Of a stretch of DNA of 64,000 bases, positions 1,637 through 49,501 are shown piece by piece; the stretch's first letter is position 1, and every line of letters begins with the position of its first letter. Source of the stretch: a virus (Duplodnaviria; Caudoviricetes); IMG/VR virus record IMGVR_UViG_3300031555_003590, positions 64,001 through 128,000 of that record. One strand, 5' to 3'. The position numbers and the translations under genes were made by a program. The notes under the pieces are model-generated. The model ran no database searches. It was given only the letters and a program-made list of their open reading frames with translations, and had not been told where the DNA came from.

Positions 1637-3058
1637 TTATATATTTAAATAAATAACCTCTTTGGCTAGTGTTACTATTTTCTTAAATCTAGATTTCCAA
1701 TACCATACTACTTGATTTATACTAGTATCTACTATATCAAAGAAGTAAGTATCTTTGTCTTCTGCATAAGGTCTTAATCGTCCAAACATTTGTTCTGCTA
1801 CTACCTTACTAGCTAAAGCTTCAGTATTAATAACAACACGTAATCCTTTAATATCTCGACCAGTACCAGTCGATTTAATTGTAGAAACTATGATATCTTT
1901 CTTTTCTGCAGATTTTTTATCTTCTGCACTTATTTTAGAATGATATGCTGCTACACTTTTATCTGGATAATCCTTTTTTAATTTTTTAACAACTTCATCC
2001 ACTGCTTCAATTAATGGAATAAATATTAATATTTTTCCTTCAATATTTTTTAATTTATTTAAAATTTCTAATATAGTTTTATATGCAGTTTCATTTTGAT
2101 CAGTAATAAATGCATATCTACCATAATTGGCTGATGTTAATGATCCTGTATATCCAATAACTTTTGCTCTATCTTTAGGACTAATTCTACTATTAATATT
2201 TACTACATGATATATTACATGTTTTCTAGTAACAGCCTTAGATTCATATTCACCATAAGTAGTTACAGAATTAAATGCTTTTTTAAAACATGCTGATTCT
2301 GTTTTATCACTTCTATCAAATGTAGCAGTAAGATATAATGTTTTATTTGTATTACTAAAGAAATCCATTAATAATATATTTGCAAATTCCATATGTGATT
2401 CATCATATACTTTAATACCAACATTAAGTTTTTTAAAGAATTTATGAAGCATATATCCATTATGAGAACTTAAGAAACTTCTAAGTGTTTGATGGTTAAC
2501 AAAATAAATATCAGCTGGTTCAACTAAATCTTCTAATATAGCTTCCATTATATTGCTACCAGCTATATTCATTAATTCTTTAGGTCTATAATCAAACATT
2601 TTATGATATGTTGAAATCCATTGTTGTTTAAGAGATTCATTTGGAGTAATAATCAAAGTTTTTAAATTTAGTTTAGTAGAAGTATATGCAACACAGAACG
2701 TCTTTCCTTTACCAGTTGCTAAGTTAAGTCCTAATTGTCTACCATCTTCACATAAGAATTTTATACTATCTTCTTGTAATTGATCTTTAGGTTCATATAA
2801 TGAATAATGTTGTCTAGACATTTTTTCACATGGATCGAATTCATTTATAAATTTAGCTTTACATTCAGTAAGTCTTTCTAATTTACTAATTGATGCTCCT
2901 CTAGGTAAATATAATTTACCATCTTCAATCATATATCCGCATGGAAAATCATTACCAGTAAATTTATCTGTCGCAGTAAAATCGTCCTCAATAACAGGTA
3001 TATCATCTTTTTGATATGGATATAATTCTATATGAGTATTATAAACATCTATATTCAT
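1637..3058 (-). CDS. Superfamily 2 helicase (UvsW-like)
   Basis: Walker A ATGKGKT, motif II YDESH, motif III TAT, motif VI QMFGRLR. Confidence 0.9.
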   Translation of the reverse strand: MNIDVYNTHIELYPYQKDDIPVIEDDFTATDKFTGNDFPCGYMIEDGKLYLPRGASISKLERLTECKAKFINEFDPCEKMSRQHYSLYEPKDQLQEDSIKFLCEDGRQLGLNLATGKGKTFCVAYTSTKLNLKTLIITPNESLKQQWISTYHKMFDYRPKELMNIAGSNIMEAILEDLVEPADIYFVNHQTLRSFLSSHNGYMLHKFFKKLNVGIKVYDESHMEFANILLMDFFSNTNKTLYLTATFDRSDKTESACFKKAFNSVTTYGEYESKAVTRKHVIYHVVNINSRISPKDRAKVIGYTGSLTSANYGRYAFITDQNETAYKTILEILNKLKNIEGKILIFIPLIEAVDEVVKKLKKDYPDKSVAAYHSKISAEDKKSAEKKDIIVSTIKSTGTGRDIKGLRVVINTEALASKVVAEQMFGRLRPYAEDKDTYFFDIVDTSINQVVWYWKSRFKKIVTLAKEVIYLNI

Positions 3059-3131
3059 AATTTTAAATCACCTCCAAAATTAACATTGTTTGTATGTTGA
3101 TAAAATAATATATCATTTTAATAAAAAGAAA

Positions 3132-3152
3132 GGTGGGAAAATGTTTCCCACC
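3132..3152 (-). terminator. Intrinsic terminator
   Basis: GGTGGGAAA/TTTCCCACC stem with T-tract on minus strand. Confidence 0.75.
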
Positions 3153-3163
3153 CAGATATTATA

Positions 3164-3688
3164 TTATACAATTTGAAATAGTCTTATAATTGAAAATCCA
3201 CAATCTTCAATTGGATAATTAAATCGTTTCTTTAATGCAAGTGTCATATCATCTATAAATATTCTATATTTGATATCAGTAAATTCAGCTTTCTTTAACT
3301 TTAATGGAATCAAAGCTTTATTAATATTGATATCATATTCAAGTCCTTCAATATTAATTTTTAATAGATTACCTGCATAAAGTTCATTACAATCTAAATC
3401 AACCCAGGAATCGCTATTTAAATCATTACAATATGAACAATTTTTGATGATATCATTATTTTCATCATCAATAACATCTAATTCTTGTATATGGGATTTA
3501 AATTTAGGATTTTCAATTAATGCATTCCATAAACATTGATCTACTGGAATTAGAATTGTATGTTCTTTAGGATTTTTAGAAATTAATATCCTATTCATAA
3601 ATAAATAATCTGTAAGAGATGATCTATCCATTACATCTTCAAATATATTTATTGCATCTTCAATACTTTGCTTTTTCGCTTTGGCCAA
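3164..3688 (-). CDS. Hypothetical protein
   Basis: 174-aa ORF overlapping the upstream HD gene, AGGAG RBS. Confidence 0.8.
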   Translation of the reverse strand: MAKAKKQSIEDAINIFEDVMDRSSLTDYLFMNRILISKNPKEHTILIPVDQCLWNALIENPKFKSHIQELDVIDDENNDIIKNCSYCNDLNSDSWVDLDCNELYAGNLLKINIEGLEYDININKALIPLKLKKAEFTDIKYRIFIDDMTLALKKRFNYPIEDCGFSIIRLFQIV

Positions 3689-25116: not shown

Positions 25117-26073
25117 ATGGCTAAGCGTTTTATAAAACTTAAAGACAGAGTTTCAATTAGAGAAAAACAACCTGTTGGTGGTTTACGAGGAGAAATAATT
25201 TTTGGTACTGGTAAAAAAGAAATTCCATTTACTGATCCTTTTGGAAATCTATCTTATCGTACTGAATTTGAAAATGTTATATATAAGGATCATAATATTA
25301 TTCCAATTGGTGGTTATCAATTTGCATTTAGTAAATTATTTAATATTGGAATGGATAAAGAAACTACTCTTCGTGTAGGTAATTTAAATGATGAAGCACC
25401 TCAAATGAAGATTGGTGTACAAAGAGCTGAATATAATTCTATTTATTATGATGCAGAAGCTAGTATTAGTAATGGTTCAATGAAAATCAATTCTGGTGTT
25501 AATATTTCTGCTCTTAACTATATTTTTGGTTTTATGATTGGTGATGGTGGAGCTCGTGAAGATAACATGACTGCTATTGCACCTGATTACAAGAGACGTA
25601 GTTTATATAGAGCTATTCCATTTAGAATGTCTAATGATGGTTCAGAAATTCCTGCAGGTAAATATTATGGTAAATCAACTTCTATTCAAGGTGTTGGTGC
25701 AGGTGAATCAATTACTTCTTATTATGTAAAGAAGTTCGATAATCCAGCTCCAAGAATTGTACATTCTTGGGTAACTGATAATCCTAATGAATTAACAGTT
25801 GTTGATGATACTGTGTTTGCTTCAACTTCTTCTATGGCTATTGAATCATATGTAGAAATGAATCTCTCTATTTCTAAATATGATGCTAGAGGATTTTTTA
25901 CTACAACTGATGCAAGTCCTCGTGTAAATGAATTTGGCCTTGTAAGTGGATGGTATAATTCAGATAAAGATGATTTTGAATCTCTTCTACTTGTATCACA
26001 TTTTACTAGACCTAGTATTACACTTGCTCAAGATGATAGTATAGAAGCTATTTATAGATTATATGCTAGATAA
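25117..26073 (+). CDS. Putative baseplate/tail structural protein
   Basis: HNII near N-terminus and NEFGL...IYRLY C-terminus typical of baseplate/fibre-attachment proteins. Confidence 0.55.
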   Translation: MAKRFIKLKDRVSIREKQPVGGLRGEIIFGTGKKEIPFTDPFGNLSYRTEFENVIYKDHNIIPIGGYQFAFSKLFNIGMDKETTLRVGNLNDEAPQMKIGVQRAEYNSIYYDAEASISNGSMKINSGVNISALNYIFGFMIGDGGAREDNMTAIAPDYKRRSLYRAIPFRMSNDGSEIPAGKYYGKSTSIQGVGAGESITSYYVKKFDNPAPRIVHSWVTDNPNELTVVDDTVFASTSSMAIESYVEMNLSISKYDARGFFTTTDASPRVNEFGLVSGWYNSDKDDFESLLLVSHFTRPSITLAQDDSIEAIYRLYAR

Positions 26074-26080
26074 TATTAAT

Positions 26081-26113
26081 ATAGACATCAGGGAATTTAT
26101 CCCTGATGTCTAT
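26081..26113. terminator. Intrinsic terminator
   Basis: ATAGACATCAGGGA/TCCCTGATGTCTAT. Confidence 0.85.
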
Positions 26114-26186
26114 TTATTTATTGCTACATTTCAATAAGGGAAAAGTTGCGATTTTTATAAAAATATAAAACAAAGGAGTGTAGAAA

Positions 26187-26783
26187 ATGAATAATCAACG
26201 AAAAGTCTCGTTGTTTAAAATCGAGACTATTATTATTTTTGCAATTGCAGCTTGCATGATTTTCCTTAATGTATTCACTACTAGTAAACTATCTGAATTA
26301 GAATTAGTTGGTACAGAAGCAATGTTTATTAAGGATGGATTAACATATCCAGAAAGTGAACAACTTGGGGAAGAAATTGTAAAATATCGCCCAGATTCAT
26401 GTAAAATGATTGAAATGTATGATGATAATTTTGAATTGTTATTTTCCCTTCAATTTGATGAAAATTATCCAATTCATAATGATAATATTAATAATCATCC
26501 AGAACTTCTTGAACTTTTAACTACTACAAAAGAAGGACAAACAACAATTGAAATTGGAGATTATACTGAAAATGTTTATTTTCAATGGGTTACTAATGAC
26601 AGAAATGAACAAAGACTAGTAATTGTATATAGTACTAAAGAAATTATTGAAAATATTTGGATCTTTTCATTTGTATGTTATTTAGTAATTATATTAATTT
26701 TTGTTTTGTTAATTATATTACATACAAAAGAATATAAAGAAAAGATTAAGCAGTATAAACAAACTACTGCTAGTAGAATCTAA
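26187..26783 (+). CDS. Two-TM membrane protein with Cache/PDC-like extracytoplasmic domain
   Basis: TM, ~125-aa domain (IEMYD...EG...VYFQWV...LVIVY), TM, short tail. Confidence 0.6.
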   Translation: MNNQRKVSLFKIETIIIFAIAACMIFLNVFTTSKLSELELVGTEAMFIKDGLTYPESEQLGEEIVKYRPDSCKMIEMYDDNFELLFSLQFDENYPIHNDNINNHPELLELLTTTKEGQTTIEIGDYTENVYFQWVTNDRNEQRLVIVYSTKEIIENIWIFSFVCYLVIILIFVLLIILHTKEYKEKIKQYKQTTASRI

Positions 26784-26812
26784 ATATATAGAAAAGGATG
26801 TGATGTTATAAT

Positions 26813-27439
26813 ATGAAAGGTAAGAAGCCTGGAAAGTTAGGCTGGGTTCGTTATGAAATCATTTTAATGATTTTATTAATAGGATGCATTTCTTATTGTG
26901 TAACATATGAATCAATAAGAACTCATGATAATGCGATCAGTATAACTGAACTAGGTACAATATCAATTCTTCATGAGGAAGATGTAATTAATACATATAG
27001 GGAACAAGGTAGACCAATTATTGATTTCCATCATGATGCATGTCAATTTATTACTGTATATAATTCAGATGAATCACTAAAATCAATTGTTATGCTTAGT
27101 GATGTAGAACCTCTATATGATCAAATTAATAATACTAGAGATTGGTGGCCAATTTTTAATAGTAGTGAAAGTGGTAAAATAGATATGTCTAACGAGGGTG
27201 TTGATATAACCATTCACTATCAATGGGTTAAATTTGATAATGATACCAAATTTCTAGTTGTATATAATATTAACGATACGGCTGATTTTATATTTAATTC
27301 TTTTACGGCTGTAAGTTATATTACTTTAATATTATCATTTATTTTATTAATAAATAGCATATATTGGAGATATCATGGTATTTCCAGTAGATATAAACAA
27401 GTCAACGCAGAAATGAAAGAGATTATTCGTAATCAATAA
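26813..27439 (+). CDS. Paralogous two-TM Cache/PDC-like membrane protein
   Basis: Same topology; CQFITVYN...SG...IHYQWV...LVVY aligns with the upstream gene. Confidence 0.6.
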   Translation: MKGKKPGKLGWVRYEIILMILLIGCISYCVTYESIRTHDNAISITELGTISILHEEDVINTYREQGRPIIDFHHDACQFITVYNSDESLKSIVMLSDVEPLYDQINNTRDWWPIFNSSESGKIDMSNEGVDITIHYQWVKFDNDTKFLVVYNINDTADFIFNSFTAVSYITLILSFILLINSIYWRYHGISSRYKQVNAEMKEIIRNQ

Positions 27440-40476: not shown

Positions 40477-41238
40477 TTGATAACAAATGGAAAACCGTTT
40501 GACACAAATATATTTTTTTCAGGAGGAGCGGGTCTATTTCTTCAGTATCATGATATTATAAAACCAGCATATTTATATGCGATTATTAAAATGATAATTA
40601 CTGAAGAAACATATGGATTGCCAGTAAATATTATCAAAAAATTTTCAATTTTATCCATTATTGAATGGTATATAAAAAGAAGATATAAAAATCCATTACA
40701 ATGTTTAGATTTTAATCATAAAGGTGAAGATGAATATTTAGATGAATTATTACGAATTATTTTGAATAATGATAAATCAATTTATAAATATAGCCCAGCA
40801 TTAAATATCAATAGAATGTTGAATGTATATAGAAGACAACATATGTCATTTCCAATTTACGTATATAGTGAAAATGAAGAATATCATATAAGAGAAGATT
40901 GTAGTAGACTTTTCCAAGGTATTCAATTTAAATATCTACATGGAGATTTAAAACAAGCTATTCAAAGTTGTGATCAAAATTTCACTTATATATTTTCTGA
41001 TATAGAATTAGTAAAAGAAGCTACTCAAATTTTGATAGGAACTTGCTCACATATTTTATTAGCAGCAGAGTATAGATATAATTATACTGATAATTGTAAA
41101 ACATTAAAATATGATCTAACTGAATTAGCTTCAAAACATCCATTTGTTAGAATTGGATTAACTACTGCTATTGATTCAATATCATTAGCTAAGTCTTTTA
41201 CTAATTTAATTAAAATTCAACAGGAAGGAGCTATTTAA
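40477..41238 (+). CDS. Hypothetical protein
   Basis: TTG start with AGGAGGT; TAATG overlap with the next gene. Confidence 0.8.
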   Translation: MITNGKPFDTNIFFSGGAGLFLQYHDIIKPAYLYAIIKMIITEETYGLPVNIIKKFSILSIIEWYIKRRYKNPLQCLDFNHKGEDEYLDELLRIILNNDKSIYKYSPALNINRMLNVYRRQHMSFPIYVYSENEEYHIREDCSRLFQGIQFKYLHGDLKQAIQSCDQNFTYIFSDIELVKEATQILIGTCSHILLAAEYRYNYTDNCKTLKYDLTELASKHPFVRIGLTTAIDSISLAKSFTNLIKIQQEGAI

Positions 41239-43295
41239 TGCTACAATTGAATGCAATTAAAACGGTTGATACACAACCAGAAATAATACCTAGATGGGAA
41301 TATAAAAAACATGCATTTCCAAATGGTGCAGAAAGTTATTGGATAAAATGGCGTTGCCATCCAGATGATATGAGATTCTTTTCAATGCCTAAAACGATGA
41401 TTATTAAATTCGATAAAGAATTATCTCACATTAACAATGAAAATATTTCTGCATTAAATGAATGGAAAGTAACTAAACTTTCATATTCTTCATATTTACC
41501 TAGAATGTGTGAAGAATTAAATTTCTTTGAAACTATGTATGATCAAGAGGGAGAATTAATTGCTGCTTTATTTAAAATCAAATATTTGATTGATGTTGAT
41601 AATATTTCATATACAATGAAAAATTTTGATGCATTTAAAGATTTAGTATATAAAACTATTTTTACTGAATCTATGAAGAATAAAATTACTAGAATGATTG
41701 AAGAAAATTATGTTGATGATATTGAAGCTGAAAATATTAAAAATATGAAAAACCCTGATATGTTAAGTATCATGCAACGTAAAAAGAAATCATTGGAGTT
41801 TTTAAATGTACATGTAAAAGCAATGTTAATGATATCATTTGGAATAAAAATATTATCATTTATTGTAAATCATTTTGCAGTAATGAGATCAATTAATATT
41901 CAAAAGAATATAGAATTATTTTATAGATTCTATGTTGGTATGTTTGATGTATTTGATTTTGAATTTAATATATACAATAAAATTTACAGCTATGTTGAAT
42001 CGAAAACAAGTACTTGTGCAAATTTCAACCGTTCCATATTCAGTCAACAAGAAGTAGAGGGAAAAGATAAGAGTATAATTATAAATCAATTAATGACACG
42101 TAATGTTGTGATAGATAATATGATTAAATTTCAAATGCCTCAAACATGGAATTCTGCTAAGGAGCAACCTAATGAACGCGTTCTCAGCTTCTTATGTAGT
42201 ATTATAAATACACATTTATCAATTTTCATTATGCAGGTAAACTAAACTGCCTGTCTTCTCATAATTGCGGGAACATCTTGTTAGACTTATACTACCAAGT
42301 TATACTAGTGATACTATAATGGTCTAGAGTAACTAACTAGAGTATGGTAACAAGGTATAAGGTAGAGAAAATCCGCAGCTAATCAACTAGTGTTAACTAG
42401 TTGCAGGTTCAACGACTATCGAAAGCAGTAATGTGAGTAGAGTAGAGCCTAAGTTAATGAGGTAGGTATATCCTTTAAATCGAAATGAGAAGCACTACTA
42501 ATAGTAGTGAAGATATAGTCTACTCTATACCAAGAGGTATAGTAGTTCATAAAAGAACGGTATTAGTGTTGCGAACTAATATGAATGCCAGGATTTAGAC
42601 GTAATCTTATAGAGACGAGTATGGTCCCTGATTCTGATGGTAATAGTAAAAATGATAGATATAGAGCATCTAAAATGAAACTAAATGAAGAATATGTAAT
42701 TACATGTTCTATGGATATGAAACAGATTGCTGATCATTTATTTAAAAAATATGAAAAAGAAATTACTCCAGAAGAAATTGAATATTATCGCAGGAATTTG
42801 AAACCAAGTAGACTTCATCAATTAATGGTAGAAATTTATTTCTTCAATTATACTGGATCAGCACAAGAATTTGCATTATTAAGAAATTTAGACTGGCATA
42901 AAATGTTATTGGTAATGCGTAAGGATATTATGCGTAGATTTAATGTAGATAAAGATAGTTTATTAGATTCTGCATTATCATTAATTATCACCAGTAATAT
43001 TGAAGAAACTCCAGTTGGTGAAAAGATGTACGTTAAAGATACTAAGTATCTAAAAGATCATCCAGTATATAATGAATTGGTAGAAAAGTTTTATTCTACT
43101 ATTATAGATATCAATCCTGATATCATTAAGAAGTTTCTAATTACATTTGTTAATAGTAAATACAGATTCGTATTATATGAACATCAGGAATTGTTAGATG
43201 AAGAAATTTCATTAAATAAGAAAGAATTAATTGATGAAATTCTTACATTTCTCTTAATAGCCAATACAAATATTTCATTGGAAGGTAGAGTATAA
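41238..43295 (+). CDS. Sigma-like promoter-specificity subunit of non-virion RNAP (AR9 gp226-like), spliced join(41238..42238,42593..43295), 567 aa
   Basis: Splice GT|A restores MQVFRRN; IIKFDK..ISALNEWKVTKLSY and LIDEILTFLL resemble AR9 gp226 as I recall it. Confidence 0.7.
42239..42592 (+). ncRNA. Group I intron (354 nt, no ORF) in the sigma-like gene
   Basis: P1 GCAGGT/GCCTGT; P10 CTAAA/TTTAG; core AATTGCGGGAA, AATCCGCAGC, GTTCAACGACTA, GAAGATATAGTCT; terminal G42592. Confidence 0.9.
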
Positions 43296-44312: not shown

Positions 44313-47300
44313 ATGCGAATAAAATTTAGTAGATTAAATTTAGAATCAGAATGTATGTATGATTGTATTAATGGAAAGGGATTCATTATTAGTGATGTAC
44401 CATTTTCTGATATAGATAAGTCAGTTAGGAATATGGATGGTCCTCGTAGCCCTAGGTTTGGTACGACTTATGGCGATGTTAATGAGTTCATGGATCGTTA
44501 TCATTGTAAATGTGGACGATATGTAGGAGCAACATTTGAAGGTGAATTATGTCCAGAATGTGGTACTAAAATTGAATATACTGATGTTGATATTATGTAT
44601 ACTGGATGGCTTAACTTTTATCCATATAAAATCATATCACCACTTTTCTTTCATCGATTACAATCAGCATTATCAAAGAAAATATTAGAAAATATTATAT
44701 CAAATGAAAATATAATTACATCATCAGGCATCATTAGAAAACATAATGATGCATTAGAAGTAAAGAAAAGTTTATTACAATATCACAATATAGGGTAAAT
44801 ATTGTTGCTCTTTCTCTCATAATTGCGGGAAACTCTCGTTAAGTCTAAGGTACTGCAGCTACTGGTGACAGATAGTGTAGCAGATAGTATAACAGCTATC
44901 GGATAGTAAAAACCCTTAGAATAGAGAAAATCATACGCAGCTAAGATAATAGTTATATATTATTTATATAAGATATTAGAATCTGGTATATTCTAATATC
45001 AGAAAGGAGGTAATGATATATGGGTAAGAAACATAGATACAAGATATCAGAAAATTATGATTTAGAACAAGCTGTATTGAATATGAATTGGAAATCAGTT
45101 TTAATACATGGAGAAATGACAAGATATGAAGTTAGTGATTGCGGCTTGGTAAAAAGTTTAAAACACAATATTATCCTTGCACCAGGAATGGATACTTATG
45201 GATATCCTCAAGTTGGAATATATTTGAATGATGTTAGATTTAATCGAAAAGTTCATAGACTAGTTGCTGAAGCATTTATTCCCAATCCTGAAAATAAACC
45301 TGAAATAAATCATAAAGATGGTAATAAAATAAATAATGATGTTAAAAATCTTGAATGGTCTACAACTAAAGAAAATATTGACCATGCAATTAGAACAGGT
45401 TTACGTAAACATATTGATGCATTAAGTGGAGCATATCATAAATATGAAATTGATATAATACATGAAATATGTAAATTATTAGAAGAAGGTAAATTACAAC
45501 AAAAGGAAATTGCTGAAATATTAAATGTCCCTAAGGGAATAATTTCTGAAATTAAATGTAAACGTATATGGCTTAGTGTATCTTGTCAATATAATATTGA
45601 TCTTCCTAATACTAGAGGCGAAACTCATCATAATGCAATATATACTGAAGATCAAATTTGCAAAGTGTGTCAAATGTTACAAGATCGAAAATATAGTTAT
45701 AAAGAAATAATGAAAATTACAGGAGTTTCTAAATCTTTAATTGCTAATATAAAGAATAAGCATAGTTGGAAATGTATTTCAGATTTATATGATATTCCTC
45801 CTTCTAATTATATTGGTGAAAATCATTATAAATCAAAATATATGGAAGATCAAATTCATTATGTATGTAAATTATTAGAAGAAGGAAAATATACTCATTC
45901 TAAGATTTCTGAAATTACTGGAGTGAGTAAAAAGGTTATTTCAAATATAAAATATAAACATTCTTGGACTCATATATCTAAATTGTATAATATATGATAT
46001 ACCAGATCATTTATTATAACATAACTATTATCAAGTTCAACGACTATCGAAAACAGTAATGTGAGTAGAGTAGTACATCAGCTAAAGATGTAAACGAAAC
46101 GAGAGACACTACTAATTAGTAGTGAAGATATAGTCTAGTATCCTATAGAAATATAGGGAAGTTCATAAGAGAACTGCACTAGCTTGCGACTAGTGTGAAT
46201 ATACGTACAACAGTTTTATGAAAATTTTGAAGAAATAATGTTGTATTATAAAAGTAAACGTAAACAAAAAGCTGATTTAATTGATTCATTAATTAGAGAT
46301 AAAGATTTAGTTTGGACATCTAAAATTCCAGTATATTCAACTGTATTACGTCCTCAAGGTGTAACTGCTGAATCATATTATTTTACTACAGCAGATAAGC
46401 ATATTAATCCTTTAACAAATATATGTATTAATTTAAAGAAAGCTTCTCCAATTGAAGTACCATTATATTTATATCAAGCTCAAATGAGAGTAAATGAATT
46501 ATGGGGTATTAATTTTGTATTAATTGACGGAAAACATGGATGGTGTAGGGGAAATGTGCTTGGAGGCGAGTTGATAATATAAAATGGCTCGCTATAAACT
46601 AGGTTAATTGCGGGAACATCTTGTTATGTCAATACTACCAAGTTATACTAGTGATAGTATAATGGTCTAGAGTAATTAACTAGAGTATGGTAACAATGTA
46701 TTGAATAGAGAAAATCCGCAGCTAATCAACTAGTGTTAACTAGTTGCAGGTTCAACGACTATCTCATAGGACTAGTAATACTAGTCAACAGGAGTAGGGC
46801 CCAATTGCATATGGGGTGAGTGAAAATCTCTTAAATCGAAATGCCTAGCTCTGTTCATTTAATAATGAGCTAAAGATATAGTCTCGGCATCCTATAAGAA
46901 TAGGAGAAGTTCATATTCAATTCATATGAATATAAATGAATTGATTGTAGAGAACTGCATAGTAGTTGCGATACTATGTGAAGATTACGTTAACTACAGT
47001 GGCAGGAGCGTTATAGTTCTTGATCCAACATTAAAAGTAGATGAGGTAGATATACCATATAAAGCATTTATTGAACAATTCAAAGGTAGAATTGTTAGAC
47101 GCATTATAATGGATAAAGGTTGGAGTATTACTAAAGCATATAATTTCCTAGCTAGTAAATTTATGTATGATGATTATGTATATTCAATTATGTGTGATAT
47201 AGTAAAAGATGAAAAACCTTCACTTATAATCAATCGTAATCCAACTATAACATTTGGATCCATACTATTAATGAAAATACGTAAAGTAAAGCCTGATGCA

Positions 47301-49471
47301 GATGATATGTCGATGTCAATACCATCTGCAATACTTCCGGGTTAACAACAGTGGCCCATCCTCTCATAATTGCGGGAACATATTGTGCTTAACAATAATC
47401 TGTATATTTATAATTATATATTATTTATATATGGATGCCTAAAGCTTCTAATACTAACTTATCATGGTAACATAGATAAGGGCTGAACTAATTATTCAGG
47501 TATAGTAAAAAGTTAGAAGATATATGGTTGATCCGCAGGCAAGGTTCGTTTAATGAAAATTAGTATATAAAATGATAAAGGAGGTGAAAATAAAATGGTT
47601 GAAGGAATGTATATTGGAGATACATTTTATTTCATCGAATGGAGAAAGATCTATATTGATGGAATTCCTACACACTATGAAGTTAGTGAAAATGGTATGG
47701 TTAGAAATACTGATGATGGATATATTCTATCTCATGATATTGATAAAGATGGATATCATAAAGTGACTATTGGTGTTAGTGGAAAATCTAAACATTTCGG
47801 TGTACATAGGTTAGTTGCATTAATGTTTATTCCTAATCCTGATCATAAACCTATTCCACATCATAAAGATAATAACCCAGACAATAATGATGTATCTAAT
47901 TTAGAATGGGCTACTTATGCAGAAAATCGTAGATATGCAGTAGAAGCTAGTAATGTTATAGGTAAACGTGGAGAAAATAGTCATTTAAATAAATATAAAG
48001 AAAAAGATATTCGTCTGATTTGCGAATTATTTGAAAAAGGTTTATCAAATATTGAAATATCTAAGATAGTTAATATGCCTAGAAAGTATATTACTGATAT
48101 ACGAAAGGGTAGAAGGTGGAAGTATATATCGAAAGAATATAAATTTGATCCAAAATCCTCTCATAGAGAATCAGGATATTATGAAGAGTTAGAAAATGCT
48201 ATTCTTTATCAACTTTCTATGAATAAATCAGTATTAGAAATAACCAAAGAATTGAATTTACCTAATACTAAAATATATAAATCTCTAATTAAACGAATTA
48301 AACGAACCAGCCTCAACGACTATCTCCTAGTGGAGAGTAGCGCCTAAGCTAATGAGGTAGGTATATCCTTTAAAGCGAAACGAGAGGCACTAGTAATACT
48401 ACTAGTGAAGATATAGTCTAGTATCCTACTGAAAAGTAGGGAAGTTCAATTTCAATTCATATAAATATAATGAATTGATTATAGAGAACTGCACTAGCTT
48501 GCGACTAGTGTGAATATAACGCTAAATGCAGACTTTTGAGGTTAAATCCCAACCATTGGAGTCTTTAAATTTCCTTAATTGCGGGAAACCTGTAATATCT
48601 GTTAATACCAAATCATAGTAGTAATATTATGATGGCAAGAGGTAATATCTCAAGGTATGGTAACAAGTTAACAGAGTTGGGTAACCGACGCAGCGAAATA
48701 TCCTTTAAATCTCAATTATATATTTTAAAATAGAAAGGAGTTGAAATATTATGGCATATGTCAAAAGAGAAAGAAGTCAAAAGGCTATTGAAAGAAGTGC
48801 AAAAAAGGTAGCTAGAAAAAAGCGTTTACAACGCAAACAAGAAGCATTTATAGCATTAGATGCTTCTGGTAATAGACCTACTTTAGCATCAAAACCAAAA
48901 CAGAGAATTACAAAAGAAATGTATCTTAGAGAGCTTGAGAAGATACCACATGCAACTGAGTATACTTTATTAAGTGATTTTAAATTATATACACCAAAAT
49001 GTCTTGTTCAGTATAAGCATAATGTTTGTGGTACTAAATTTCAAGCAACTCCTAAAGATTTCGAGTTGAAAAAATCATTATGTCCTACATGTTATGGCAA
49101 TAGAGATTTAAAGGATACGAGTTCAACGACCAACGAACAACCCTAATACATTAATATCGAATTAGGATTAGTAGTGTAGAGCTATATATAATAAATATAT
49201 AGTGGAAGATGGGATTCCTTAAATCGAAACAGGAAGCTATAGAATATTATTCTGTAGAAGATATGGTCTACTATTTAGATATTAAATATTTAATATCTAA
49301 AAGCAGGATGGAGATGTATTAAATACATTATCGATGCCACTTGATGAAATATCTGAGTGGTTTGCTGGCTTTAGTCCTGTCAATATGATGATCAACCGCG
49401 TTGATGAGACGATTAGGTACGATTGCTCGGCACTAGAGAATATCACCTTGGCCATTCTAAGCGACAAATAA
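44313..49471 (+). CDS. RNAP beta' N-terminal subunit (probably non-virion RNAP), spliced join(44313..44796,46206..46571,46990..47342,48522..48536,49307..49471), 460 aa
   Basis: Zn finger CKCG..CPEC; junctions give NIG-L-QQFY, LGGE-F-NYSGRSVI, NRNPT, ILPG-LNADF-DGDVLN; exons total 1383 nt and stay in frame. Confidence 0.9.
44797..46205 (+). ncRNA. Group I intron 1 of beta'-N (1409 nt)
   Basis: P1 AGGGT/GCTCT; core AATTGCGGGAA, ACGCAGC, GTTCAACGACTA, GAAGATATAGTCT; terminal G46205. Confidence 0.88.
45020..45997 (+). CDS. Intron-encoded NUMOD4-HNH homing endonuclease with three C-terminal HTH-like repeats
   Basis: YEVSDCG.VKS, VHRLVAEAFIPNP..KPEINHKDGNK.NN...NLEW. Confidence 0.92.
   Translation: MGKKHRYKISENYDLEQAVLNMNWKSVLIHGEMTRYEVSDCGLVKSLKHNIILAPGMDTYGYPQVGIYLNDVRFNRKVHRLVAEAFIPNPENKPEINHKDGNKINNDVKNLEWSTTKENIDHAIRTGLRKHIDALSGAYHKYEIDIIHEICKLLEEGKLQQKEIAEILNVPKGIISEIKCKRIWLSVSCQYNIDLPNTRGETHHNAIYTEDQICKVCQMLQDRKYSYKEIMKITGVSKSLIANIKNKHSWKCISDLYDIPPSNYIGENHYKSKYMEDQIHYVCKLLEEGKYTHSKISEITGVSKKVISNIKYKHSWTHISKLYNI
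46572..46989 (+). ncRNA. Group I intron 2 of beta'-N (418 nt, no ORF)
   Basis: P1 GCGAGT/GCTCGC; same core elements; terminal G46989; T|TT restores Phe. Confidence 0.88.
47343..48521 (+). ncRNA. Group I intron 3 of beta'-N (1179 nt)
   Basis: P1 GGGT/GCCC; core AATTGCGGGAA, ATCCGCAGG, CTCAACGACTA, GAAGATATAGTCT; terminal G48521. Confidence 0.88.
47595..48347 (+). CDS. Intron-encoded NUMOD4-HNH homing endonuclease
   Basis: YEVSENG.VRN, VHRLVA..FIPNP...HHKDNN..NN..SNLEW; 3' end overlaps the intron core. Confidence 0.92.
   Translation: MVEGMYIGDTFYFIEWRKIYIDGIPTHYEVSENGMVRNTDDGYILSHDIDKDGYHKVTIGVSGKSKHFGVHRLVALMFIPNPDHKPIPHHKDNNPDNNDVSNLEWATYAENRRYAVEASNVIGKRGENSHLNKYKEKDIRLICELFEKGLSNIEISKIVNMPRKYITDIRKGRRWKYISKEYKFDPKSSHRESGYYEELENAILYQLSMNKSVLEITKELNLPNTKIYKSLIKRIKRTSLNDYLLVESSA
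48522..48536 (+). other. 15-nt micro-exon encoding LNADF of the catalytic motif
   Basis: CTA AAT GCA GAC TTT between G48521 and the P1 of intron 4. Confidence 0.88.
48537..49306 (+). ncRNA. Group I intron 4 of beta'-N (770 nt)
   Basis: Guide CCATTGGAGTCT pairs with AGACTTT (P1) and GATGG (P10); core AATTGCGGGAA, ACGCAGC, GTTCAACGACC, GAAGATATGGTCT; terminal G49306. Confidence 0.88.
48751..49146 (+). CDS. Intron-encoded basic zinc-ribbon protein with no recognisable nuclease domain
   Basis: AAGGAG RBS; K/R-rich N-terminus; HNVCG...CPTC. Confidence 0.7.
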   Translation: MAYVKRERSQKAIERSAKKVARKKRLQRKQEAFIALDASGNRPTLASKPKQRITKEMYLRELEKIPHATEYTLLSDFKLYTPKCLVQYKHNVCGTKFQATPKDFELKKSLCPTCYGNRDLKDTSSTTNEQP

Positions 49472-49475
49472 TCAA

Positions 49476-49501
49476 AAGAGGAGGGTTGATACCCTCCTCT
49501 T
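49476..49501 (+). terminator. Intrinsic terminator directly after the beta'-N stop
   Basis: AAGAGGAGGG/CCCTCCTCTT plus T-tract; supports TAA 49471 as the gene end. Confidence 0.85.

Follow-up and report, generated by a model that had tools for sequence, protein, structure and literature searches.

Two group I introns 15 bp apart in the catalytic-loop DNA of a phage non-virion RNA polymerase gene

Described systems and the locus in the window

In Bacillus phage AR9, the gene g270, annotated as the N-terminus of the non-virion RNA polymerase (nvRNAP) beta' subunit, is interrupted in its catalytic loop by one group I intron carrying the endonuclease gene g271. In this study, we analyzed a 64,000-nt stretch of DNA from an uncultured AR9-like jumbo phage (hereafter the window), bases 64001-128000 of a 292,119-bp IMG/VR record (IMGVR_UViG_3300031555_003590) that CheckV rates 100% complete, in which the same gene is interrupted in the same catalytic loop by introns of the same family. 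The AR9 intron lies after GDYDG|D, 6 nt downstream of the site of the last intron in the window gene (intron 4), and its HNH/NUMOD open reading frame (ORF), g271, is 38-47% identical to the intron ORFs of the window. AR9 has one loop intron; in the window phage the loop is interrupted twice, at PG|L and F|D, neither of them the AR9 position, and two more introns lie upstream in the gene. An exon of only 15 nt is left between the loop introns. We consider it very probable that two independent and complete IA-type group I introns were inserted 15 bp apart in the DNA encoding the NADFDGD loop and that both must splice. A preliminary description of the locus had already noted that AR9-like phages carry introns in RNA polymerase (RNAP) genes, and this holds for AR9 g270/g271.

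Several self-splicing group I introns per essential phage gene are likewise known from Twort orf142, phiNIT1 rNDPL and SIOphi (PMC11878797, PMC3073962). A small exon lies between two introns in phiNIT1, and joining of one intron's 5′ splice site to the 3′ splice site of its downstream neighbour has been observed in multi-intron phage genes (PMC11878797). Exon skipping is reported for Twort orf142 (Landthaler and Shub 1999, as cited in PMC3073962). The interrupted genes in those phages encode a tail tube protein, ribonucleotide reductase, DNA polymerase and terminase, and their splicing has been demonstrated experimentally, whereas the gene in the window encodes an RNA polymerase and its splicing is predicted. 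A further parallel is PhiPA3 gp210, the endonuclease of a group I intron that sits beside conserved catalytic Asp codons in a multisubunit RNAP gene of a jumbo phage; this HNH-bearing intron is described as both a mobile element and a weapon in competition (PMC11620839). That intron is single and lies in the beta subunit of the virion RNAP of chimalliviruses, whereas the window has a beta' nvRNAP gene from another lineage. Mini-exons shorter than ~4-5 codons, located between adjacent group I introns and encoding highly conserved residues, are also found in mitochondrial genes such as cox1, where those of fewer than ~4 codons are a regular occurrence and ordinary gene finders miss such exons (PMC10352661); those are organelle genomes in which splicing is often protein-assisted, while the window presents a phage gene with ORF-bearing introns. 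It is the gene and the 15-nt size of the exon that are notable here, the principle being already established by published small internal exons and published skipping between phage introns.

Exon model and group I anatomy

The gene was identified by tblastn with the exon-3 protein, which is 37% identical to its match in Listeria phage LPJP1, 35% in Bacillus phage BpSp, 32% in AR9 and PBS1 and 29-31% in Staphylococcus jumbo phages, the AR9 match being g270. The closest solved chains are chain d of PDB 7S00 and 7S01, deposited as DNA-directed RNA polymerase beta' subunit (E ~3.5e-13). The translation contains an N-terminal Zn ribbon, an NYSGRS motif and the NADFDGD metal-binding loop, as expected for the N-terminal half of a beta' subunit, and the whole record has a single copy of this gene. 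The window has a G+C content of ~28%, and a GenBank search for a near-identical phage found none. Ten related IMG/VR loci were retrieved and mapped by tblastn; one of them (L013) is an intron-less allele. The gene is composed of five exons and four group I introns (IA-type), which together with their ORFs and the downstream terminator are arranged as follows.

44313..44796, + strand: exon 1, with the Zn-ribbon motif CKCG...CPECG, ending in phase 1 (ORF list, splice model, colinear with L013)
44797..46205, + strand: intron 1, group I, with P/Q/R/S core, P6 closing helix, U.G 5′ splice site and terminal G
45020-45997: intron-1 ORF in loop L6, 325 aa, endonuclease with HNH_3, NUMOD4 and triple HTH (Pfam)
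46206..46571, + strand: exon 2 (splice model, L013 comparison)
46572..46989, + strand: intron 2, group I, without an ORF (RF00028, 59.2 bits, full model)
46990..47342, + strand: exon 3, ending ...SIPSAILPG in phase 0 (T47342; ...CCG GGT = PG)
47343..48521, + strand: intron 3, group I, terminal G48521
47595..48347, + strand: intron-3 ORF in loop L6, 250 aa, homing endonuclease with HNH_3 and NUMOD4; its 3′ end overlaps P6′ and P7
48522..48536, + strand: exon 4, the micro-exon CTAAATGCAGACTTT, encoding LNADF (codons 402-406 of 460)
48537..49306, + strand: intron 4, group I, terminal G49306
48751..49146, + strand: intron-4 ORF in loop L6, 131 aa, with a basic N-terminus and a zinc-ribbon-like part (C..H..C/CxxC)
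49307..49471, + strand: exon 5, DGDVLNTLSMPLDE...LSDK and stop codon, opening GAT GGA GAT = DGD
~49474-49500: intrinsic terminator hairpin 3′ of exon 5, on which terminator-like small-RNA model matches land

Joined, the exons form a 1383-nt coding sequence without an internal stop, which translates to 460 aa reading ...SIPSAILPG-LNADF-DGDVLNTL..., and the fully spliced product carries the predicted peptide ILPGLNADFDGD. The loop peptide would be ILPGLNADFDGDVLN after full splicing and ILPGDGDVLN after exon skipping. The intron-less allele is 79% identical to this product and colinear with it without a gap over all 460 residues, and at all four junctions the ligated exons of the window match the continuous L013 DNA in register, base for base. 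The loop DNA is uninterrupted in L012 and L018 as well as in L013 (PSAILPGLNADFDGDVLNTL), and the differences of these three loci from the window within the micro-exon are synonymous. Because the junctions match intron-less alleles, the coordinates of the preliminary description (intron 3 ending at G48521, 15 nt encoding LNADF, intron 4 starting at once and DGD resuming at 49307) are exact to the base. Its statement that both introns are in phase 0, with PG-DGD as an in-frame skip product, is likewise borne out by cumulative coding lengths of 1203 at intron 3 and 1218 at intron 4. An independent DNA contig from an animal-feces metagenome covers 48071-49471 with zero differences, and the arrangement is therefore not peculiar to one assembly. 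Contigs from four DNA runs, which are short and of low depth, include none that joins exon to exon across an intron boundary, and the apparent joints in them fall in repeats shared between introns. We estimate the chance that a 1964-nt insert would hold an in-frame LNADF 15-mer together with a terminal G and a U.G-containing P1 at <1e-3.

Each of the five introns of the window, four in the beta' gene and one at ~42246-42584 in the gene upstream, has the classical P, Q, R and S core elements. Helices were checked with local-pair alignment and explicit helix tables on a set of 19 related introns, drawn from the window and from its relatives. Pairings in intron 3 are as follows.

47339-47343 with 47353-47357: P1, including U47342.G47354
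47360-65 with 48382-87: P3
47370-76 with 47532-38: P4
47543-54 with 48297-308: P6
48318-22 with 48414-18: P7
48388-93 with 48402-07: P8

Those of intron 4 are as follows.

48553-48564: guide sequence, 5′-CCAUU.GGAGUCU-3′
48553-57 (CCAUU) with 49307-11 (GAUGG, the start of exon 5): P10
48558-64 (GGAGUCU) with 48530-36 (AGACUUU, the last 7 nt of the micro-exon): P1, including U48536.G48558
48570-75 with 49231-36: P3
48579-85 with 48685-93: P4
~48698-48713 with ~49103-49118: P6
49128-32 (GACCA) with 49264-68 (UGGUC): P7
49237-44 with 49250-57: P8
~49275-49302: P9 hairpin

Both loop introns have the U.G 5′ splice site and the terminal G of group I introns, and both have P3, P4, P6, P7 and P8, with the G-C guanosine-binding pair kept in P7. 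P3, P6 and P7 covary across the 19 introns, examples for P3, the long-range pairing between the intron halves, being UCUCUC/GAGAGA, CUAGG/CCUAG, CCUCUC/GAGAGG (intron 3), UUUCCU/AGGAAG (intron 4), ACUUUCC/GGAAAGU and CAUCUC/GAGAUG. For P7, most introns have GACUA/UAGUC, and intron 4 and its homolog in the relative L014 have GACCA/UGGUC, a compensatory change from U-A to C-G. The P6 helices of introns 3 and 4 are long, unrelated in sequence and close the ORF-bearing loop L6; folding energies are -22.6 kcal/mol for intron 3 (GGUUCGUUUAAU/AUUAAACGAACC) vs. -8.0 +/- 2.5 for shuffles, and -21.0 kcal/mol for intron 4 vs. -9.2 +/- 2.8. The earlier identification of both elements as group I introns is upheld by these features. 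Extra hairpins between P7 and P3′ in the 3′ domain of these introns are of the type that characterizes subgroup IA, as in the Twort and T4 introns.

The two introns define their splice sites in different ways. In intron 3, P1 is GGGU/GCCC, 4 bp long, and P10 is just 1 bp; this P1 covaries with the L014 copy, where it is AGGU/GCCU (exon CCA GGT). The guide of intron 4 forms 7 bp in P1 and 5 bp in P10, a total of 12 contiguous pairs with the ligated junction, which fixes the F|D junction independently of any protein argument. As had been proposed, 7 of the 15 nt of the micro-exon (48530-48536) take part in P1 of intron 4 by pairing with 48558-48564. The ligated sequence that self-splicing is predicted to produce is the uninterrupted DNA of L013, L012 and L018.

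A scan with group I intron models, suggested as a check in the preliminary description, gave nothing window-wide, and scores both above and below the gathering score when introns were searched as slices. Rfam cmscan of the whole 64-kb window at the gathering threshold, and of the 38-52 kb slice at E up to 10, returned no Intron_gpI match. Intron 2 alone (471-nt slice) matches the full RF00028 model at 59.2 bits (gathering score 50, E 1.3e-14), the 3′ half of intron 3 reaches 34.2 bits (E 1e-6) and intron 4 reaches 11.5 bits, with ORF loops of 370-700 nt splitting the model in introns 3 and 4. Since intron 2 passes when searched alone, the whole-window null is a filter artefact and was dismissed as proof of intron absence. 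Speed filters hide real group I introns in AT-rich phage DNA.

Mobility and distribution among relatives

The ORF of intron 3, located in a peripheral loop, has the domains of a homing endonuclease (Pfam HNH_3 7e-9 and NUMOD4 8.6e-8; phrog_59 4e-44) and is 43% identical to the ORF of the same-site intron in L014 and 38% identical to AR9 g271. The intron-4 ORF gave no Pfam match and shows no detectable nuclease domain; its weak match to phrog_559, 'HNH endonuclease' (1e-7), is to a non-catalytic part. The ORF in the corresponding position of the L014 intron is 74% identical to it. Alleles with and without the introns occur among close relatives, as expected of mobile introns, and the loop introns are distributed as follows.

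No loop intron: L013, L012 and L018 (L013 is intron-less throughout the gene)
Second-site intron alone: L016/17
One intron after DFDG|D: L019 and AR9
Tandem pair: the window, L014/15, L020 and L027

Insertions have occurred at four points within 21 nt (PG|L, DF(1)|, F|D and DG|D), of which DG|D is the annotated site of the AR9 g270/g271 intron. In all four other tandem lineages (L014/15, L020 and L027) the second intron lies 2 nt upstream of the intron-4 site of the window (GAYU|...|UUGAC), which leaves a 13-nt internal exon between introns in phases 0 and 1. Skipping this exon would shift the frame; among the tandem-pair loci only the window has an in-frame skippable exon. The guides of the relatives covary with synonymous exon changes (GCAGACU/GGUCUGC and GCUGACU/GGUCAGC). 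The DNA of the metal-binding loop has thus been a target of repeated invasion, in agreement with the published preference of introns for the active-site codons of essential genes (PMC12908238) and with the case of PhiPA3 gp210 (PMC11620839).

With just 15 bp between them, introns 3 and 4 could be transferred jointly, and a homing break made by the HNH enzyme would probably move both as one unit by co-conversion. Introns 1 and 3 have near-identical 3′ tails (...GAACUGCACUAGCUUGCGACUAGUGUGAAUAUA(A)CG), a similarity that suggests recent exchange between these two introns.

The intron-4 homologs of the relatives differ from intron 4 in several ways. In L014/15, L016/17 and L020, a reverse-strand GIY-YIG (SegE-like) gene lies inside the loop of a long P9 helix, which is the same helix built from three wholly different sequences. 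These introns have the U.G 5′ splice site, and their P1 and P10 together form 12-14 contiguous pairs; their last base is A and not G. The L027 homolog has the same layout and a terminal G. These GIY-YIG-bearing copies are located at L014 7480-9189, L016 6353-7671, L020 5370-7249 and L027 (reverse complement) 2124-3487. L015 is a complete genome with direct terminal repeats whose sole copy of this essential gene carries the intron ending in A. An ORF-less copy of intron-4 type at L016 6353-6740 keeps P3, P5, P6, P7, P8 and P9; no 3′ strand of P4 (Q element) was recognizable in it and RF00028 gave no match. This copy may be in decay, or it may depend on factors acting in trans.

A second gene has also been invaded at a DGD-encoding loop. 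In the related phage contigs L028, L029/30 and L033 (reverse complement), a group I S element is followed by a reverse-strand GIY-YIG gene in P9, and this module lies directly upstream of exons reading ...DDGDQVSIRG... or ...DDGDTVSIRG.... L029/30 is a second copy within the genome of L014/15, and the gene is a candidate paralogous RNAP beta'.

Outside the beta' gene, the window contains an ORF-less group I intron at 42246-42584 with a perfect P/Q/R/S consensus. It joins ORFs 41238-42245 and 42585-43295, neither of which has a Pfam match. Intron-core-like stretches are also present elsewhere in the same genome, outside the window, at ~25191-27324 (-) and ~189476-189817 (-), and other genes of this phage probably contain more introns.

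Predicted splicing of the loop introns and its consequences

In the reading we favour, stacked mobile introns that are both removed, each intron, complete with a guide sequence, a catalytic core and a terminal G of its own, would be excised by the usual guanosine-initiated reaction in two steps, and removal of both would yield ILPG-LNADF-DGD and with it an active enzyme. The micro-exon would be the remnant between two homing sites in a hot spot, where nearly invariant loop-coding DNA could be targeted by homing endonucleases. The sequences show the anatomy, the exon junctions, the core pairings and their covariation, the polymorphic presence of the introns and the clustering of their sites; the self-splicing activity, the constitutive removal of both introns and their co-conversion are inferred. 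Three other accounts of the gene structure were considered and rejected. A twintron or single composite intron does not suit a gene that needs LNADF and introns that each have a full core of their own, and ribosomal bypass would leave two catalytic-loop residues missing. Separate translation of the DGD fragment of the relatives, as in a split gene, does not agree with the lack of a start codon or ribosome-binding site or with guides that pair across the junction.

Several points weigh against stacked introns that both splice constitutively. Splicing is deduced and not observed, no RNA-seq run with the sequence having been found. At 11.5 bits, intron 4 as a whole stays below the Rfam threshold, and no nuclease domain is recognizable in its ORF, so that it may not be autonomous as a mobile element. 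The short P1 (4 bp) and almost absent P10 of intron 3 could make the choice of its 3′ splice site less strict. In SIOphi, skipping affects 47% of transcripts (PMC11878797), so 'constitutive' may be too strong a word. Contigs from four DNA runs, which are short and of low depth, include none that joins exon to exon across an intron boundary, and the apparent joints in them fall in repeats shared between introns.

It is possible, although we regard it as doubtful, that the closeness of these selfish introns makes splicing error-prone, with some transcripts, in an unregulated proportion, skipping the micro-exon or stalling once intron 4 has completed its first step, at a tolerated fitness cost. 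Exons between neighbouring phage group I introns are skipped elsewhere (PMC11878797, PMC3073962), the 3′ splice site of intron 3 is weakly defined with its 1-bp P10, and only 8 unpaired nt separate the terminal G of intron 3 from P1 of intron 4. Against this, the 12-bp P1 and P10 of intron 4 together with incompatible P3 and P6 strands between the introns favour independent and correct splicing. The persistence of the same arrangement in four other lineages suggests that its cost is low.

A regulatory role was suggested in the preliminary description: ordered or alternative self-splicing could serve as a device in which the skipped PG-DGD beta' subunit, having lost the first Asp, would be dead, and the ratio of the two products would gate or time late transcription. 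We find this very improbable. In favour of the idea are the phase 0 position of both introns, with its in-frame skipped product, the AR9 nvRNAP, an enzyme of late transcription whose own genes are early genes (PMC7598289), and the exon skipping of Twort and SIOphi, which is real (PMC3073962, PMC11878797). The comparison with relatives does not support it, however, since the introns are dispensable: the tandem pair is not conserved, the loop is free of introns in three relatives, and in others there is a single intron or the insertion site differs. The 13-nt exon with phases 0 and 1 in L014/15, L020 and L027 would cause a frameshift on skipping, and a conserved in-frame skippable exon was not found among the relatives. 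A hybrid ribozyme made of the 5′ half of intron 3 and the 3′ half of intron 4 could form neither P3 nor P6, the CCUCUC strand of intron 3 P3 being unpairable with AGGAAG of intron 4 and the P6 strands being unrelated. The guide of intron 3 offers no P10 to exon 5, and its HNH endonuclease ORF is what is expected of a selfish element. At least as improbable is a more specific form, in which controlled joining of exon 3 to exon 5 would yield a beta' N-terminal half that lacks LNADF, still assembles and is dominant-negative, with splicing fidelity (GTP, Mg, temperature) tuning or delaying late transcription. A regulated adaptive switch is improbable to a similar degree.

That the gene is a decaying pseudogene, in which one or both introns no longer splice and the subunit is not made from this locus, is extremely improbable: intron 4 scores under the Rfam threshold, its ORF is without a nuclease domain and the relatives have odd copies of it (a last base A, one without the 3′ strand of P4), but all five exons are open and 79% identical to the intron-less allele with only synonymous loop differences from L013, the gene is the only copy in a complete genome, and introns 3 and 4 retain every core helix.

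For annotation, the locus is a trap, in that standard gene callers and whole-window Rfam scans miss a 15-nt exon that holds five catalytic-loop residues. To annotators of jumbo phages, the RNAP subunit will appear as fragments without an active site unless micro-exons are sought. If skipping does occur here, its product would be an inactive subunit. The gene is a clean and extreme case of mobile introns stacked in the most conserved DNA of an essential enzyme, and the clade offers a natural series from intron-less alleles through single introns at four positions within 21 nt to tandem pairs. This series is useful for the investigation of homing-endonuclease competition over overlapping targets and of the splicing accuracy of neighbouring ribozymes.

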